Positions 2,830-55,198 of a stretch of 64,000 bases of DNA are shown one piece after another (position 1 is the first letter of the stretch; every line of letters starts with the position of its first letter). The stretch lies in the IMG/VR virus record IMGVR_UViG_3300042507_004106; one strand, 5' to 3'. The notes beneath the pieces are model-generated. The model was not told where the DNA came from. It saw only the letters and a program-made list of their open reading frames with translations, and made no database searches. The DNA is from a virus (Duplodnaviria > Caudoviricetes). The translations under genes were made by a program, and so were the position numbers.

Positions 2830-3039
2830 TCAATAAGGAAGTGACTTCAAACCATTCAAAACTTCTTGAAATCGTTCAGCACGACTCTTGTGGTGCTGTA
2901 CATTCTCTTCAAGCACACTTACAATATCGTCCAGAACAACATCTACAGACGCATCAGTATCAAAGTATTTTTGGACTGCTTCGGCAAGGTAGCGCCGCCG
3001 ACTCCATTCCATACTATAGGGTTTATAGTCCATAATCAT
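2830..3039 (-). CDS. Hypothetical protein
   Basis: 69-aa ORF directly downstream of a sigma70-type promoter. Confidence 0.65.
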   Translation of the reverse strand: MIMDYKPYSMEWSRRRYLAEAVQKYFDTDASVDVVLDDIVSVLEENVQHHKSRAERFQEVLNGLKSLPY

Positions 3040-3054
3040 AGTGTATATGTTGGT

Positions 3055-3083
3055 ATTATAGGGTATCTAAAGCGTTTCGTCAA
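3055..3083 (-). promoter_or_regulatory. Sigma70-type (early) promoter TTGACG-N17-TATAAT
   Basis: Near-consensus boxes with 17-nt spacer, heading the small-ORF array. Confidence 0.75.
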
Positions 3084-3283
3084 CCCCGATTTTTTCTATC
3101 ATACTGATGCCATTTGCACCATCCATCAGGTGAAATCTTGCCCTTTACAGCAGTACAAGCATTAGGTGGTCTCCACATATTGCAGTTAGAGCATTTCTCA
3201 TTACCCTTTGGTTCATCAATGTAACCTGCTGTTGCTTTGGATGACTTTTCTTCTTCAGAAAGAAATTCATTGAATGACTTCAT
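3080..3283 (-). CDS. High-potential iron-sulfur protein (HiPIP)-like, with a T4-type capsid-targeting-like N-terminus
   Basis: AGYIDEPKGNEKCSNCNMWRPPNACTAVKGKISPDGWC matches the small-HiPIP four-Cys pattern. Start revised to ATG 3283 (TAATG coupling, GGAGG upstream), giving MKSFNEFLSEE. Confidence 0.8.
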   Translation of the reverse strand: MKSFNEFLSEEEKSSKATAGYIDEPKGNEKCSNCNMWRPPNACTAVKGKISPDGWCKWHQYDRKNRG

Positions 3284-3606
3284 TAGTCTCTTTGCCTCCA
3301 ATCGGTTTCGTCATCATCTCTCTTGAACCAATCGTGCAAATCTTCAGGAGAATCAAATCCACGAAGACCAAATCTTTCGTGTCCCAATCCACCCAAATCT
3401 AACTGATTCATGAAGTCATCCAAATCACCCTCAACCATATTAGGATTTTCTGCTTTTCTTCTTGCCTGACGAAGCATTGTTCCAGCAGAGCGATTTGCTT
3501 TTGCAAGTTTCTCTGCCCAAATCATATCTTCTAAACTTACTTCTTCATGAAGTACAATCTTCTCACAAATTGCTTCAAGACGCAGGCGATATTGTGTAGA
3601 AAGCAT
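3283..3606 (-). CDS. Hypothetical protein (cyanomyophage-type, MLSTQYRLRLEAIC...)
   Basis: 107-aa ORF following a late promoter. Confidence 0.75.
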   Translation of the reverse strand: MLSTQYRLRLEAICEKIVLHEEVSLEDMIWAEKLAKANRSAGTMLRQARRKAENPNMVEGDLDDFMNQLDLGGLGHERFGLRGFDSPEDLHDWFKRDDDETDWRQRD

Positions 3607-3626: not shown

Positions 3627-3860
3627 TTATTTATTTTTATATTCGTTCATTAACTCCTTTGCGAGTTTCATAGAACGCCGCCACATTAGATACTTCACAA
3701 TCGGATTCTTAGGATTATAAAGTATCCACCACTTCATTTTTTCATACTCAACTCTAAGCAATTGAGTAAGCATATAGAATGCTTTTGCTATTGATTGATC
3801 GGTAATAATCAGATAAGCAATGCAAAAAAATATAATGAAGTAGATATATGACGTACTCAT
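3627..3860 (-). CDS. Hypothetical membrane protein
   Basis: 77 aa with a hydrophobic N-terminus. Confidence 0.65.
   Translation of the reverse strand: MSTSYIYFIIFFCIAYLIITDQSIAKAFYMLTQLLRVEYEKMKWWILYNPKNPIVKYLMWRRSMKLAKELMNEYKNK
3628..3635 (-). promoter_or_regulatory. T4-type late promoter AATAAATA
   Basis: Matches the (T/N)ATAAATA late consensus ~22 nt upstream of ATG 3606. Confidence 0.55.
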
Positions 3861-4838: not shown

Positions 4839-5318
4839 TTAAGACCGTCTTTTCTTCCTCCATTCTCTCATATAAAGTGCGTGGGCGCTTATCTGCTCCT
4901 CTGGGAGGCGCTTTCCCTTGTTCCAAGCAGTTCTGCCCTTTAGAGAGTCTTTCATCGCTTGTAGGGTCTCTGGGGTGTGCCTGCGACCGTAAAAACCATT
5001 CATATCACCACTTCTCTTCTTACAATTTTCTTTATGCCTTTCAGTACCAAAGTATCCAGTATCTCCACCTGCTCCACCTTCACTTTTATTGTATAGAATG
5101 CCAGTTTTTATATCCTTCCTACCAAATACAGCAATCATATAAACTTCGTGCTTAAATGCGTCTTCTTCAGTTAAGTTATTTTTAAGGATAAGTATCCTTT
5201 CTTTTGGTGGAACAGTATGAAATCCGTGCTTAACATACGCACGATTTCCTTTCCCCTTACCAATATAATAAGGTGTGCCGTCTTCACGCAAGTATGCGTA
5301 AGTGTAGTATTCTTTCAT
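4839..5318 (-). mobile_element. Free-standing GIY-YIG homing endonuclease with NUMOD3-like C-terminus
   Basis: YYTYAYLREDGTPYYIGKGKGNR catalytic motif; FYGRRHTPETLQAMK...AWNKGK tail. Confidence 0.85.
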
Positions 5319-8420: not shown

Positions 8421-8456
8421 TTGTAGCTGCTTTATTTAAAGTATTTATTTTTAAAA

Positions 8457-14120: not shown

Positions 14121-14155
14121 TGTATTATGACTTCTAAATTATTTCTATGTTTTAT

Positions 14156-14458
14156 TTATGAAGTCAAATCCTCCCCATATTCAGTTTCAAAATCATCTGG
14201 TAGATCTTCTGGATTTTCTAACTCTACAGGAAACAGCATTGGATGTGCTTCCTCATCTATGAGGTAGAAAGAGTTTCTGTATAAATCGTCTGGTTCATAT
14301 GTACGTTGTTTATCTGCTTCTCTACAAAGATCTTGATCATATAAGTGCCCTTCTGGAAGTTCGTCAAATGTGAATGGAACGTGATTGATAAAATACATCT
14401 TCACAATCATACTGCCATCGTTATACCAACAGTATGCGTGATCGATACGATAAGACAT
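14156..14458 (-). CDS. Hypothetical protein
   Basis: 100-aa ORF; AATAAATA upstream. Confidence 0.7.
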   Translation of the reverse strand: MSYRIDHAYCWYNDGSMIVKMYFINHVPFTFDELPEGHLYDQDLCREADKQRTYEPDDLYRNSFYLIDEEAHPMLFPVELENPEDLPDDFETEYGEDLTS

Positions 14459-15681: not shown

Positions 15682-16359
15682 TTAAGGATAAGTTTTGATT
15701 ATCTCAATGGCTCCCCGTATTCGGGTATTCTCTTCTCCCAATATACGGACTGTAGAATTATGGGCGTATCTTTCAATTTCATATTCGCGCCTCTCAGATT
15801 TTACTTGATTTGCTCCTGTGACCAAACTGTTTAATTGACTTCTAAGTGAAACAATTTGATTTTGTCTTGAAGTAATGGATGATGCGTGAGACACACAAAC
15901 TGAAGAAGTGCAAGGTATTCTATAACAATTTGATAAGTCTCCATACAAACTTCCTATACCTGTTTGAGAAGAATCACTTTGAGTATAAACCAAATACGTT
16001 CCAATTCCAGCGTTAGATTGAACTAAAATGGTATTTGAACTATCAAAAGGATCATCACCATCATATGCCGAATTAGAAATATTCTCACTATAAACTCTAA
16101 CAACATCAGGATAGACAGTTGTTACTCCAACGGTTGTTCCACATCCAACTGCATATGCATTAGTTGATAAAGAAACAATTTCTTGTTGAAGAGTATTGAT
16201 TTCTGCGGTGATTGAAACAATTTTTGAATCTACATTTGTGCAAGGTGATGAAAATAAGTCAATATTTTCTTGAGTTTCAACTTTACTATCCTGTAAAGTT
16301 TCTATTGCACCATTATTTGAAACTATTTTTTGTTCTAGAACTTCAGTTAGAAATTTCAT
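15682..16359 (-). CDS. Hypothetical (probably virion) protein
   Basis: 225 aa with coiled-coil segments; last gene of the baseplate operon. Confidence 0.7.
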   Translation of the reverse strand: MKFLTEVLEQKIVSNNGAIETLQDSKVETQENIDLFSSPCTNVDSKIVSITAEINTLQQEIVSLSTNAYAVGCGTTVGVTTVYPDVVRVYSENISNSAYDGDDPFDSSNTILVQSNAGIGTYLVYTQSDSSQTGIGSLYGDLSNCYRIPCTSSVCVSHASSITSRQNQIVSLRSQLNSLVTGANQVKSERREYEIERYAHNSTVRILGEENTRIRGAIEIIKTYP

Positions 16360-17601: not shown

Positions 17602-19642
17602 TACAATCTACTTGACTCGTTACTTCTGTCTTCAGTTCAGATAATAGACCAATGACTGGTTTTAATATTGCTCCAGATCCAGTTGTTGAATTTACTGTAA
17701 TAACTGGAAGTGTAGAAATCTCTGTAGTATTTATTGGTTGTGCCGAAATGATAAATCCATTATCTACTGTTAGACTATAAGTATTTCCAAAGTTATCTGA
17801 GGCAGTATCAGATGCCGAATATCCAGTCCCTGAAGATTGAACAGTAACATCAACAACACCATAAGGTTGTGTATTATATTGTTCAGATATTGGATATCCC
17901 TCTCCAGAAGAAGTAATGTAAATAGAAGTCACTTCACCATTGCTATTGATTACTGCTCTACCCTTAGCACCGTATCCTAATCCACAATTATCAGTAATTT
18001 CTACAAATGGTGGGAATCTATATCCAGATCCACTGTTTGTGATAATCGCTCCAATAACGCCTGCTACTTGATTTCCACTTTGAATTATTCCCGAATTCTC
18101 AATCGCAGTTCCAAAGATAGGAACTGCCGTTGCACCAAGTCCACCGCCACCAAATATATTAATTTGTGCAGGACCACAACTTGTTGGAAGTCCAGTATAA
18201 CATTGACTTAAAGCGTTGACTGCATCGGAAAGAAGAGAACCATCTATAAAAATATCTGCAAGATTTTTTGCTTGTCCAGCAATTCCCTGAACAGTGCCTT
18301 GAGCATTCTGAATAGTCTCAATTACCGCATTAGCATTATTTAATACATCAAATATACCATTAAATGCTTTTTCAATATCAGTCTGTTTCTTTGGACCAGA
18401 ACCAATGACCCATTCTTTTACTCCATCACATTTGGTATTAGTTTGATTACAATCAAACAGACCACCTAAAGATTTAATTGCGTCAATTGTTCCCGTTATA
18501 AAATCAACAACATCAAATGCTCCCAGAAGAGCAGAAACTCCATCTAATGCTGCCGATAATCCATCTGCAACAGCGTCTACAATCGATGTGAGTAAAACTC
18601 CTACGAACTGCTCTACAGCACAAGAAGCAAACTGTTTTACATTTTCAATAACTGAAGTAAGTAAATCAACAATAAGATCTTTTAATCCCTCAACAATAGC
18701 GTTAGCAACACAAGAAAGTGCTTGCTCCAAAACTTTGATTGGAATTACGAAAACTTCATTCGATTTATATCCTGCAGTATGGGCAGCTGCTGGACTTCCA
18801 GTTGCAGCAAAAACAGAAGCATAAACTGTTTCGTAAATTGCTTTCAATGTTTTTGGAATAATTCCTGGTTTTTCTTCAGTTCCAACCAAAAAGTTGTAAA
18901 TTGAGTCCATAATCGCACCAACTAACCAGTTGAGAGATGACTTAATTACTTCAGCAGTATTTGCAATTGCTTGTCTATACTCCTCAATCTTCCCCTTGCC
19001 TTCTTCAACTGATTTTAATAGATTACTAACTTCATTTTTAATTGTTTTAATTGTTGTGTCTTCACAAGTGTCTGCAAAAACAACCTCCTTACCAATCCCA
19101 CTATAGGAATAAAGTTCTCCCAACCTTTTGGCGACTTCTGGTGGTACTTGTCTTGGGCTTAACTGAGATGTTGGAGTTGCTTCGTTAGTTTGATTTGCAT
19201 AATTTCTACCAGTTCCATTTGGAGTTGGTATATTAGATGTATAACCAGTAAAAGGGATAAATGGATTTTTATATTCACCATTGGAATATTGATCCGTTCT
19301 TCCCAAAGCTCCCATAATGACGGGAATTTGAGAATTATCCCCATCTAAATAAAATCCAATTACAATATCACCCTGACTTAATTTTGGGTTTACTGCATAG
19401 TTTGCTGCTCCAGTTCCCGCAGTCGTTGGGAGCATTACTTGCGCCCAAGGAAGATCCTCATCTGTTAAAGACTTATTATCTAAAGGATGATACCCTAGAA
19501 TTCTAACTTTATATCTTCTACCCCAACCACCATTATAATTTTGTTGGTCTTCTTGAACTGCGATTGGTGCAATCTGCCCAATCCACCAACGGAATCCATC
19601 TCTACCAATGAAATGACTTTGAAGTAATGATTGGTCTAACAT
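17594..19642 (-). CDS. gp5: Baseplate central spike, gp5-like (N-terminal OB fold; no lysozyme domain recognised)
   Basis: FRWWIGQI...RYKVRILGYH...LPWAQVMLP...VIGFYLDGDNSQIPVIMG. Confidence 0.85.
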   Translation of the reverse strand: MLDQSLLQSHFIGRDGFRWWIGQIAPIAVQEDQQNYNGGWGRRYKVRILGYHPLDNKSLTDEDLPWAQVMLPTTAGTGAANYAVNPKLSQGDIVIGFYLDGDNSQIPVIMGALGRTDQYSNGEYKNPFIPFTGYTSNIPTPNGTGRNYANQTNEATPTSQLSPRQVPPEVAKRLGELYSYSGIGKEVVFADTCEDTTIKTIKNEVSNLLKSVEEGKGKIEEYRQAIANTAEVIKSSLNWLVGAIMDSIYNFLVGTEEKPGIIPKTLKAIYETVYASVFAATGSPAAAHTAGYKSNEVFVIPIKVLEQALSCVANAIVEGLKDLIVDLLTSVIENVKQFASCAVEQFVGVLLTSIVDAVADGLSAALDGVSALLGAFDVVDFITGTIDAIKSLGGLFDCNQTNTKCDGVKEWVIGSGPKKQTDIEKAFNGIFDVLNNANAVIETIQNAQGTVQGIAGQAKNLADIFIDGSLLSDAVNALSQCYTGLPTSCGPAQINIFGGGGLGATAVPIFGTAIENSGIIQSGNQVAGVIGAIITNSGSGYRFPPFVEITDNCGLGYGAKGRAVINSNGEVTSIYITSSGEGYPISEQYNTQPYGVVDVTVQSSGTGYSASDTASDNFGNTYSLTVDNGFIISAQPINTTEISTLPVITVNSTTGSGAILKPVIGLLSELKTEVTSQVDCIV

Positions 19643-53941: not shown

Positions 53942-53971
53942 TGTGTGATTATAATGTATTTGAAGTATTTA

Positions 53972-55198
53972 TTAGAATAGTGAGAAGTCTACAGATTTGA
54001 TTGCTGATGTATGAGAAAATCCAGCACTCACTTGTTTCCAATCGGTTCCTCCAGCAAATGTTGTAACTGGAGTGGATCTAGTGATTGTATCATTAGTTCC
54101 AAGTTTTCCATCACCGCCAGGACCCCAAACCCATAAGGTTCCATCAGTTTTGATTGCTGCTATGTGATAACCTCCAGAACTTACTTGTTTCCAGTTGGTT
54201 CCTCCAGCAAATGTTGTGACTGGAGTGGATACCCTGGTTGTAGCATTAGTTCCAAGTCTTCCAGAACCTCCATCACCCCAAGTCCATAAGGTTCCATCAG
54301 TTTTGATTGCTACTGTAGAAAAATCTCCACCACTTACTTGTTTCCAGTTAGTTCCTCCGGCAAAGGTGGTGACTGGAGTGGATCTAGTGATTGTATCATT
54401 AGTTCCAAGTTGTCCAAAACCTCCATTACCCCAAGCCCATAGAGTTCCATCAGTCTTGATTGCTGTCATATAGTCTCTATGACCATTCACTTGTTTCCAG
54501 TTGGTTCCTCCAGCAAATGTTGTGACTGGAGTGGATACACTGGTTGTAGCATTAGTTCCAAGTCTTCCAGAACTTCCATTACCCCAAGTCCATAAGGTTC
54601 CATCGGTCTTGATTGCTGCTGTACAATTACCTCCACAACTCACTTGTTTCCAGTTGGTTCCTCCAGCAAATGTGGTGACTGGAGTTAATTTAACAGTTGA
54701 ATCATTAGTTCCAAGTGGTCCAAAACCTCCATCACCCCAAATCCATAAAGTTCCATCGGTCTTGACTGCTGCTGTATGAGAAGATCTACTAACACTCCCT
54801 TGTTTCCAGTTGGTTCCTCCTGCAAATGTTGTGACTGGAGTACTACAACTAAATACTGTAGTGTTAATTCCAAGTTTTCCAGCACTTGTGTTAGACCCCC
54901 AAGTCCATAGAGTTCCATCAGTTTTAATTGCTGCTGTACTGTCACCTCCAGCACTCACTTGTTTCCAGTTGGTTCCTCCAGCAAATGTGTTGACTGGAGT
55001 GGGTCTATCCACTGTACCTCCACCTATTCCAAGTTTTCCAGAACCTCCATCACCCCAAATCCACAATTCAGGAGGAATACCAATCTGCTGTCCAATCCCA
55101 GGATAAACACTAATCAAATAATCTTTGGTGACTAACTTATCACCCAAGTCAGTACCATTATTATCTCTAAAGTTCGTGGTAACTCTTACGGAACTCAT
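53972..55198 (-). CDS. RCC1-repeat beta-propeller protein (7 repeats)
   Basis: Same repeat scaffold as 48445-49641. Confidence 0.9.
   Translation of the reverse strand: MSSVRVTTNFRDNNGTDLGDKLVTKDYLISVYPGIGQQIGIPPELWIWGDGGSGKLGIGGGTVDRPTPVNTFAGGTNWKQVSAGGDSTAAIKTDGTLWTWGSNTSAGKLGINTTVFSCSTPVTTFAGGTNWKQGSVSRSSHTAAVKTDGTLWIWGDGGFGPLGTNDSTVKLTPVTTFAGGTNWKQVSCGGNCTAAIKTDGTLWTWGNGSSGRLGTNATTSVSTPVTTFAGGTNWKQVNGHRDYMTAIKTDGTLWAWGNGGFGQLGTNDTITRSTPVTTFAGGTNWKQVSGGDFSTVAIKTDGTLWTWGDGGSGRLGTNATTRVSTPVTTFAGGTNWKQVSSGGYHIAAIKTDGTLWVWGPGGDGKLGTNDTITRSTPVTTFAGGTDWKQVSAGFSHTSAIKSVDFSLF

Follow-up and report, generated by a model that had tools for sequence, protein, structure and literature searches.

A HiPIP-like protein of a T4-like freshwater cyanophage with a predicted T4-type capsid-targeting leader in place of a Tat signal

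PioC of Rhodopseudomonas palustris TIE-1 is exported by the Tat system to the periplasm and acts there as an electron carrier in photoferrotrophy; Tat-exported HiPIPs receive their cluster before export. With 54 residues, PioC (PDB 6XYV) is a minimal HiPIP. In phage T4, the genes ipII and ipIII encode internal proteins (IPs) that start with MKTYQEFIAE, and ipI encodes one that starts with MKTFKEF (T4 record). The first ten residues of IPIII are sufficient for head targeting, residues 4 and 7 being the targeting and residues 8 and 10 the processing determinants, and gp21 cleaves after L/I-x-E (review, PMC9026906). In the T4-like cyanophage S-CREM2, 52 virion proteins were detected by mass spectrometry (PMC10665884, Table 3). 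Finally, proteins that contain MuF and InPase domains have been argued to be packaged and injected (Iyer et al. 2017, PMC5512222).

We examined a window of 64,000 nucleotides (the whole stretch of DNA that was analysed), which belongs to a freshwater cyanophage of the T4-like type. The isolate closest to it is Synechococcus phage S-SRM01 (Kyanoviridae, 240.8 kb), to which about half of the window could be aligned at ~73% DNA identity. According to its ORF and translation, the gene of a HiPIP-like precursor occupies positions 3080..3283 on the minus strand (67 codons plus a stop at 3080-3082, with the ATG at 3283), and a Shine-Dalgarno-like GGAGG was read at 3295..3299 (minus strand), 11 nt 5' of this ATG. 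The A of the ATG is shared with the TAA of an upstream 107-codon ORF (3283..3606, minus strand; phrog_507), and the two are translationally coupled via the TAATG. The same two-gene arrangement was found in S-SRM01, 3' of a DEAD-box helicase, where the homolog of the HiPIP gene (protein QPX48026.1) is 88% identical and annotated as a hypothetical protein, and also in more distant metagenomic relatives (contigs L020 and L021). The HiPIP gene sits in a block of small early-looking ORFs 3' of the DEAD-box helicase, outside the head module, and the S-CREM2 homolog of the 107-codon ORF is absent from the virion proteome.

The word-indexed search recovered 21 close homologs of the HiPIP ORF, and the scan of IMG/VR recovered homologs at 113 viral loci. 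Across the homologs, M1, K2, F4, F7, E10, Y21 and the Cys residues are invariant or nearly so, and the comparison with 36 distinct homologs gave dN/dS values of 0.01-0.1 with dS saturated. Because the conserved residues recur on more than 100 viral contigs and dN/dS is low, the ORF goes beyond chance: 3080-3283 (minus strand) is a real gene under strong purifying selection. Among isolated phages, S-SRM01 was the sole tblastn match to the protein; PHROGs has no family for it, and PF28414 is listed for two of its homologs. The scan of 185,579 species genomes with this single protein returned a single full-length match; the 8-kb contig that carries it is binned in a lake MAG but is probably phage DNA placed there in error. 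The remaining matches were to the domain only, in proteobacteria and Eremiobacterota; none was cyanobacterial, in a scan that detects close relatives only and is no proof that cyanobacteria are without HiPIPs.

The first-pass annotation of this DNA had given the N-terminus as MKSFNEFLSEE and had described the gene as coupled behind an ORF with a late-promoter box. Both readings agree with the start at the ATG at 3283, with the TAATG overlap and with the T4-type late-promoter-like box AATAAATA at 3628..3635 (minus strand), 21 nt upstream of the ATG of the 107-codon ORF. An alternative TTG start at 3301 was rejected after the proposed survey of homolog N-termini, since the residues before MKSF vary or are missing among the homologs and MKSF...E is conserved. 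The 21-nt spacing of the NATAAATA box is the same as before large structural ORFs. In the window, ATAAATA occurs 17 times on the minus strand (e.g. 8442-8448, 14153-14159, 53966-53972) and 0 times on the plus strand; 12 of the 17 sit 14-32 nt before an ATG, including those of ORFs with 1887, 559 and 446 codons, of which the 559-codon ORF looks like a fibre protein. The set looks like the late promoters of the phage and may be usable for mapping its late genes. The position of the late-promoter box is shared by S-SRM01 and by 15 of 53 homologous loci; the box is exact in only 19 of the 53, and in contig L066 it stands 16 nt upstream of the ATG of the HiPIP gene itself. As far as a motif can tell, this fits a late transcription of the HiPIP gene. 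At the other end, a strong promoter of the sigma-70 type (TTGACG-17-TATAAT, 11 out of 12 matches; 3055..3083, minus strand) overlaps the stop codon of the HiPIP gene; transcription of the following gene (2830-3039) as a separate unit probably begins from it. Elsewhere in the window, a 159-codon ORF at 4839-5318 (minus strand) has its own AATAAATA box 5' and a GIY-YIG-like N-terminus (YYIGKGKG), and is probably a homing endonuclease.

The HiPIP core of the protein comprises residues 12-60 (3104..3250, minus strand) and is equal in extent to mature PioC. The codons of the Cys ligands C31, C34, C43 and C56 lie at 3191-3193, 3182-3184, 3155-3157 and 3116-3118, respectively, on the minus strand. 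Their spacing, C-x2-C-x8-C-x12-C, lies within the ligand pattern that we used for HiPIPs, C-x2-C-x(8-16)-C-x(12-14)-C; the Cys pattern first written for this protein had two spacers off by one or two residues and was otherwise right. In the alignment of 117 sequences Y21, C31 and C34 are invariant, and C43, C56, G54 and W55 are conserved in at least 90%. The aromatic shell of HiPIPs, with a Tyr before the first Cys and a Gly-Trp before the last, aligned with that of PioC and other HiPIPs.

The HiPIP-type domain proposed in the first-pass annotation was recovered by profile and by structure. The comparison with Pfam HIPIP (PF01355) gave an E-value of 2.6e-4 with a score of 21.6 bits, which is 0.4 bit short of the gathering threshold of 22.0; several close homologs were above the cut-off (23-25 bits). 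When the profile of the close family was compared with PDB, PioC was found with E 6.5e-14 (query 12-60 to PioC 3-51 of 54), followed by two further HiPIPs (E 1e-4 and 1e-3). The exhaustive profile search recovered 2297 relatives at E <= 1e-3. The AF2 model based on the 117-sequence alignment had a pLDDT of 88, lower at residues 1-10; it replaced a model made with 19 close homologs only (pLDDT 54). Foldseek against PDB placed PioC (6xyv) at the top (TM 0.79, rmsd 1.4 A, 39% identity), and the top 17 matches were all HiPIPs (PioC and 16 other HiPIP chains), before a weak tail. We accept that the window protein has the HiPIP fold and ligand set, in a structure that is predicted and not solved, and its sequence suggests that it most likely binds one [4Fe-4S] cluster via C31, C34, C43 and C56. 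Automatic annotation already labels viral clusters of the family as 'HiPIP domain-containing'. The phage protein thus resembles PioC in fold, mature-domain length and four-Cys ligands; it differs in that it is encoded by a T4-like cyanophage, has no export signal and carries a ten-residue T4-type leader.

Codons 1-10 (3254..3283, minus strand) encode this capsid-targeting-type leader, MKSFNEFLSE, which ends in L-S-E with a predicted prohead-protease cut after E10. All four IPIII determinants (aromatic-4, F7, L/I-8 and E10) are present as F4, F7, L8 and E10; positions 4, 7, 8 and 10 are also the ones conserved across the family, and positions 3, 5 and 9 are variable. The likeness to T4 IPI, IPII and IPIII lies in the decapeptide form M-K-[ST]-[FY]-x-E-F-[LI]-x-E with its four determinants and its L/I-x-E site. 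Moreover, the T4 IPs and the window protein are both small, basic when mature and encoded outside the head module among small ORFs. Past the leader, however, there is no sequence similarity, and the T4 IPs are not metalloproteins.

Residues 1-12 of the window protein are short and acidic and contain neither a twin arginine nor a hydrophobic stretch, as a Tat signal would have. The cellular homologs align from residue 9-21 onward only and have Tat-like leaders instead. We compared the 160 best relatives in which the core could be recognised: in 85 of them the conserved Tyr is preceded by an extension of more than 26 residues, Tat-like in the cases that we inspected, and the other 75 are leaderless. 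The leaderless relatives fall into two groups: one begins right at the domain, with no ten-residue extension, and includes many phage homologs; the other has 8-10 extra residues of the form M-K-x-F-x-E-F-L-x-E or M-[KR]-h-x-[DE]-L-[LF]-E. As judged from these sequences, the HiPIP domain is not always coupled to a capsid-targeting-type leader. For the window protein, the comparison of sequences and the model provide good support for a T4-type capsid-targeting leader that replaces the Tat signal on a HiPIP domain, as had been claimed at first pass. We also considered a DNA-level or translation-enhancer origin of the leader and rejected it: the codons of the leader differ between copies in one genome, so that it is the peptide that is conserved and not the DNA, and the residues are kept with dS saturated.

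We searched for the leader with a motif written a priori from the T4 determinants alone (M-[KR]-x-[FY]-x-x-F-[LI]-x-E), at every ATG, GTG and TTG in six frames. It matched gene starts only: one in the window (the HiPIP gene), four in S-SRM01 and three in G001, a complete 246.5-kb IMG/VR relative. With a slightly looser pattern, hardly any of the ~9000 Met positions per genome gave an internal match. The HiPIP ORF was the sole coding-strand match to the leader pattern in the 64-kb window, where the looser regex also matched one plus-strand ORF at 16248 that is likely non-coding. In related phages the leader was present on 3-8 unrelated proteins per genome, again at gene starts only. These leader-bearing proteins are mutually unrelated and include a cytidylyltransferase-like protein, two long basic paralogs, a 102-residue protein of the S-SRM01 structural region (between the endonuclease VII and tail-sheath genes) and a 56-residue basic protein encoded immediately 3' of gp23. 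Around the HiPIP gene of contig L066, four other ORFs start with MK[ST][FY].EF[LI].E, and the counterpart of one of them in L077 (283 residues) starts with MKTYQEFISEA, one residue off T4 IPIII.

A prohead protease of the gp21 type (Peptidase_S77) was found in all five HiPIP-bearing phage genomes tested (S-SRM01 and four from IMG/VR), including phages of 282-382 kb. The T4 sequences read FGSFLTE|AEIGG in gp23 and MAKINELLRE|S in gp24, the bars marking the known cleavage points. At the equivalent position, S-SRM01 gp23 has SFLSE|A, a putative maturation site in which FLSE is identical to the HiPIP leader. We found no literature on a capsid-targeting sequence in cyanophages.

The virion proteome of S-CREM2 provided a comparison with proteins detected in particles, and we read the N-termini of all 52 virion proteins of this phage, whose genome has ~219 ORFs. 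The a-priori motif occurs in three S-CREM2 proteins, the SAM hydrolase gp6, the kinase gp14 and the cytidylyltransferase gp154, and all three were detected in the virion (hypergeometric p = 0.013). A relaxed motif added gp13 and gp136, so that five out of five ORFs were virion-detected (p = 6.5e-4); the p-value of the strict motif is the fair figure, since the relaxed one was written after the S-CREM2 sequences had been seen. These virion non-structural proteins (gp6, gp14, gp154, gp13 and gp136; OR473000) share with the window protein the leader M-K-x-F-x-x-F-L-x-E and the origin from a T4-like cyanophage, but carry other cargo domains. S-CREM2 is without a HiPIP gene, and its proteome therefore supports the tag and not the cargo. 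The shared N-terminus is not mentioned by the authors of the proteome (PMC10665884). Two P-SSM2 proteins (PSSM2_115 and PSSM2_194) have a similar leader, yet the record does not mark them as virion proteins. A further S-CREM2 protein, gp12, has an internal RFASFMAE|A close to its annotated start.

Pfam scans of the longer family members identified fusions of the HiPIP-like domain with Phage_Mu_F, with the InPase of 'polyvalent' virion proteins, with GH19 lysozyme plus LysM, with a ParB-like nuclease (weak), with NUDIX plus DUF2213, with the anti-CBASS protein Acb1 and with a ChaB-Peptidase_S78 prohead protease. In particular, P0146 (1306 aa), P0096 (984 aa) and P0110 (315 aa) contain Acb1, NUDIX plus DUF2213 and ChaB-prohead protease, respectively, and these three architectures appear to be undescribed so far. 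The ChaB-Peptidase_S78 fusion lies on a 62-kb contig, where the next two ORFs are long (516 and 364 residues) and gave no match in Pfam; we guess that they are the scaffold and capsid genes. The fusions are capsid-interior or ejected-protein contexts: MuF, InPase, ParB-like and lysozyme domains are hallmarks of the 'polyvalent' proteins (PMC5512222). These are multi-domain, in contrast to the window protein, which is a stand-alone single domain with a T4-type leader. A full-text search of Iyer et al. 2017 (PMC5512222) showed that a HiPIP-like or iron-sulfur domain is not listed there. In a class of relatives with a C-terminal extension, found on short contigs, the neighbouring small basic ORFs all start with MKIIEIITEN, MKMSEIINEN or MKLREIFSET, and the neighbourhood looks like an internal-protein locus on these starts.

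HiPIP-like domains were also seen in very large T4-superfamily phages (L019 and L025 from metagenomes; L026-L032 and L040 from IMG/VR, up to 382 kb), where a conserved GGAYGKHGK segment and a variety of enzymes have been added to them. The runs of small basic ORFs beside them all start with M-K-h-x-E-h-h-x-E, and a cytidylyltransferase-like gene lies just upstream.

The reading that we favour, and hold to be somewhat more probable than its negation, is that the precursor consists of a T4-type leader and a minimal PioC-type HiPIP, is packaged in the head, cut after E10 and ejected with the DNA. Synthesis of the protein would take place in the cytoplasm of the host, with a late promoter driving at least part of it, and the cluster would be supplied by the host Fe-S machinery. 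The leader would then bring it into the scaffolding core of the prohead, where a gp21-type prohead protease would cleave after L8-S9-E10, and the mature cargo (~57 residues, basic, calculated pI ~9) would stay in the head and exit with the DNA at infection. Since the Tat signal is replaced by a ten-residue head-loading tag of the T4 type, the window protein probably travels in the virus particle and reaches the cell together with the DNA. Packaging is indirectly supported by comparative genomics, by the S-CREM2 proteome of other leader proteins and by the capsid-interior fusions; packaging and cleavage are proven for the T4 IPs, and for the window protein we infer packaging, cleavage, ejection and cluster binding.

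As to what the protein would do after delivery, our best guess is a cargo that acts early, as a redox module, an oxygen-stable metal-cluster module or a counter-defence factor. It would not be a bulk metabolic electron carrier, since a head cargo amounts to tens to hundreds of copies only. At first pass, a donor or acceptor of electrons in the host photosynthetic chain had been suggested. Such a role is topologically awkward and unlikely, because an ejected protein lands in the cytoplasm and the high-potential carriers of cyanobacteria function in the thylakoid lumen; a better fit is a low-copy cargo that acts early in redox or counter-defence, or a cluster module with a structural role. A more far-reaching reading, which we consider speculative and improbable as a whole, is that the head carries a redox-active, oxygen-stable [4Fe-4S] protein among the DNA, able to donate or accept one electron, and that HiPIP-like domains are a recurrent capsid-delivered module in many lineages. 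In one version this protein would quench oxidative or UV radical damage to the packaged genome of a sunlit virus, and in another it would interfere, just as infection begins, with a host process or defence that depends on redox chemistry.

Several other explanations were weighed against the packaged HiPIP. The protein could be packaged and yet use its HiPIP-like domain as a compact, cluster-stabilised structural or adaptor module and not as an electron carrier, for example as a leading domain that helps the cargo to settle in the core, to bind DNA or to get through the portal, with other phages reusing the domain N-terminally on ejected multi-domain proteins. The fusions speak for it, as the fused domain is usually N-terminal, after a short leader and before effectors (GH19+LysM, InPase, ParB-like and others), and as fusions to MuF and the prohead protease exist; a few members (P0099 and P0055) even have Gly or Ser for the fourth Cys. 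In nearly all members, however, the four Cys are retained together with the aromatic shell that redox-active HiPIPs typically have, and we consider this explanation possible, on the unlikely side. A little less likely in our view is a cytoplasmic auxiliary redox protein that is never packaged and shuttles single electrons for phage or host enzymes, with residues 1-10 forming a short helix. Residues 4-12 are indeed helical in the AF2 model, many homologs are without the N-terminal extension, and the gene lies among small non-structural ORFs near the helicase; in addition, redox genes neighbour some relatives (2OG-Fe(II) oxygenases and AhpC/redoxin in L024), as does peptide deformylase in L022. 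Against this stand the absence of the extension from cellular HiPIPs and its position outside the fold (PioC aligns from residue 12, and pLDDT is lower at residues 1-10), the coincidence of its conserved positions with the T4 targeting and processing determinants, and the presence of the same leader on unrelated proteins that are virion-borne in S-CREM2. We also know of no cytoplasmic partner that works near HiPIP potentials.

Small phage proteins with four Cys are often zinc binders, and the four Cys could form a HiPIP-derived zinc knuckle that binds zinc or another metal, a suggestion with which the Pfam score just under threshold would agree. Against it stand the similarity to PioC, which does contain a cluster (39% identity, rmsd 1.4 A), the spacing of HiPIPs, the conserved Tyr and the Gly-Trp-Cys, and we regard zinc as quite improbable, more so than any explanation named above. 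Least credible of all is an exported periplasmic or lumenal HiPIP like the bacterial relatives: the cellular homologs do have Tat-like leaders, but the first 12 residues of the window protein are short and acidic and contain no twin arginine or hydrophobic stretch, which leaves export with hardly any credence.

Our literature search found no report of a virion-carried iron-sulfur electron carrier, nor of a HiPIP in a phage or cyanophage. If the favoured reading of a packaged HiPIP with a T4-type leader is confirmed, it would be the first iron-sulfur electron-carrier fold shown as phage head cargo. The T4 capsid-targeting rule would then extend to cyanophages, with aromatic-4, F7, L/I-8 and E10 predicting cargo, a rule of four positions that already accounts for the virion SAM hydrolase, kinase and cytidylyltransferase of S-CREM2. 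Confirmation would also point to a HiPIP-like module, so far undescribed, that many phages have in their ejected multi-domain proteins (with Acb1, InPase, MuF, lysozymes and prohead protease), and virions in iron-poor waters would contain a little iron.

The leader was also noticed on other genes. In S-SRM01 (MW015081), three clustered ORFs at 81722-84158 start with MKSFSQFQED or MKTFQ[EQ]FQES, two of them being the long basic paralogs, and four further leader ORFs lie at 126582-126890, 138614-138784, 165428 and 176324, one of them directly after gp23. All these S-SRM01 ORFs are annotated as hypothetical and are candidates for internal proteins on the strength of their N-termini. In T4 (NC_000866), gene 61.1 (18966-19130), a 54-codon hypothetical, starts with MKTFKEFIKE and is the sole ORF besides ipI-III with a capsid-targeting-type leader. 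Finally, the widely conserved 'cytidyltransferase' of cyanophages had the leader in every genome looked at (MKKFSAFLSE, MKSFSQFLTE, MKNFHQFITE, etc.), with copies in Syn9 (gp184), Syn19 (150377), P-SSM2 (PSSM2_194), S-SRM01 (165428) and G001 (211324), which fits its detection in S-CREM2 virions.
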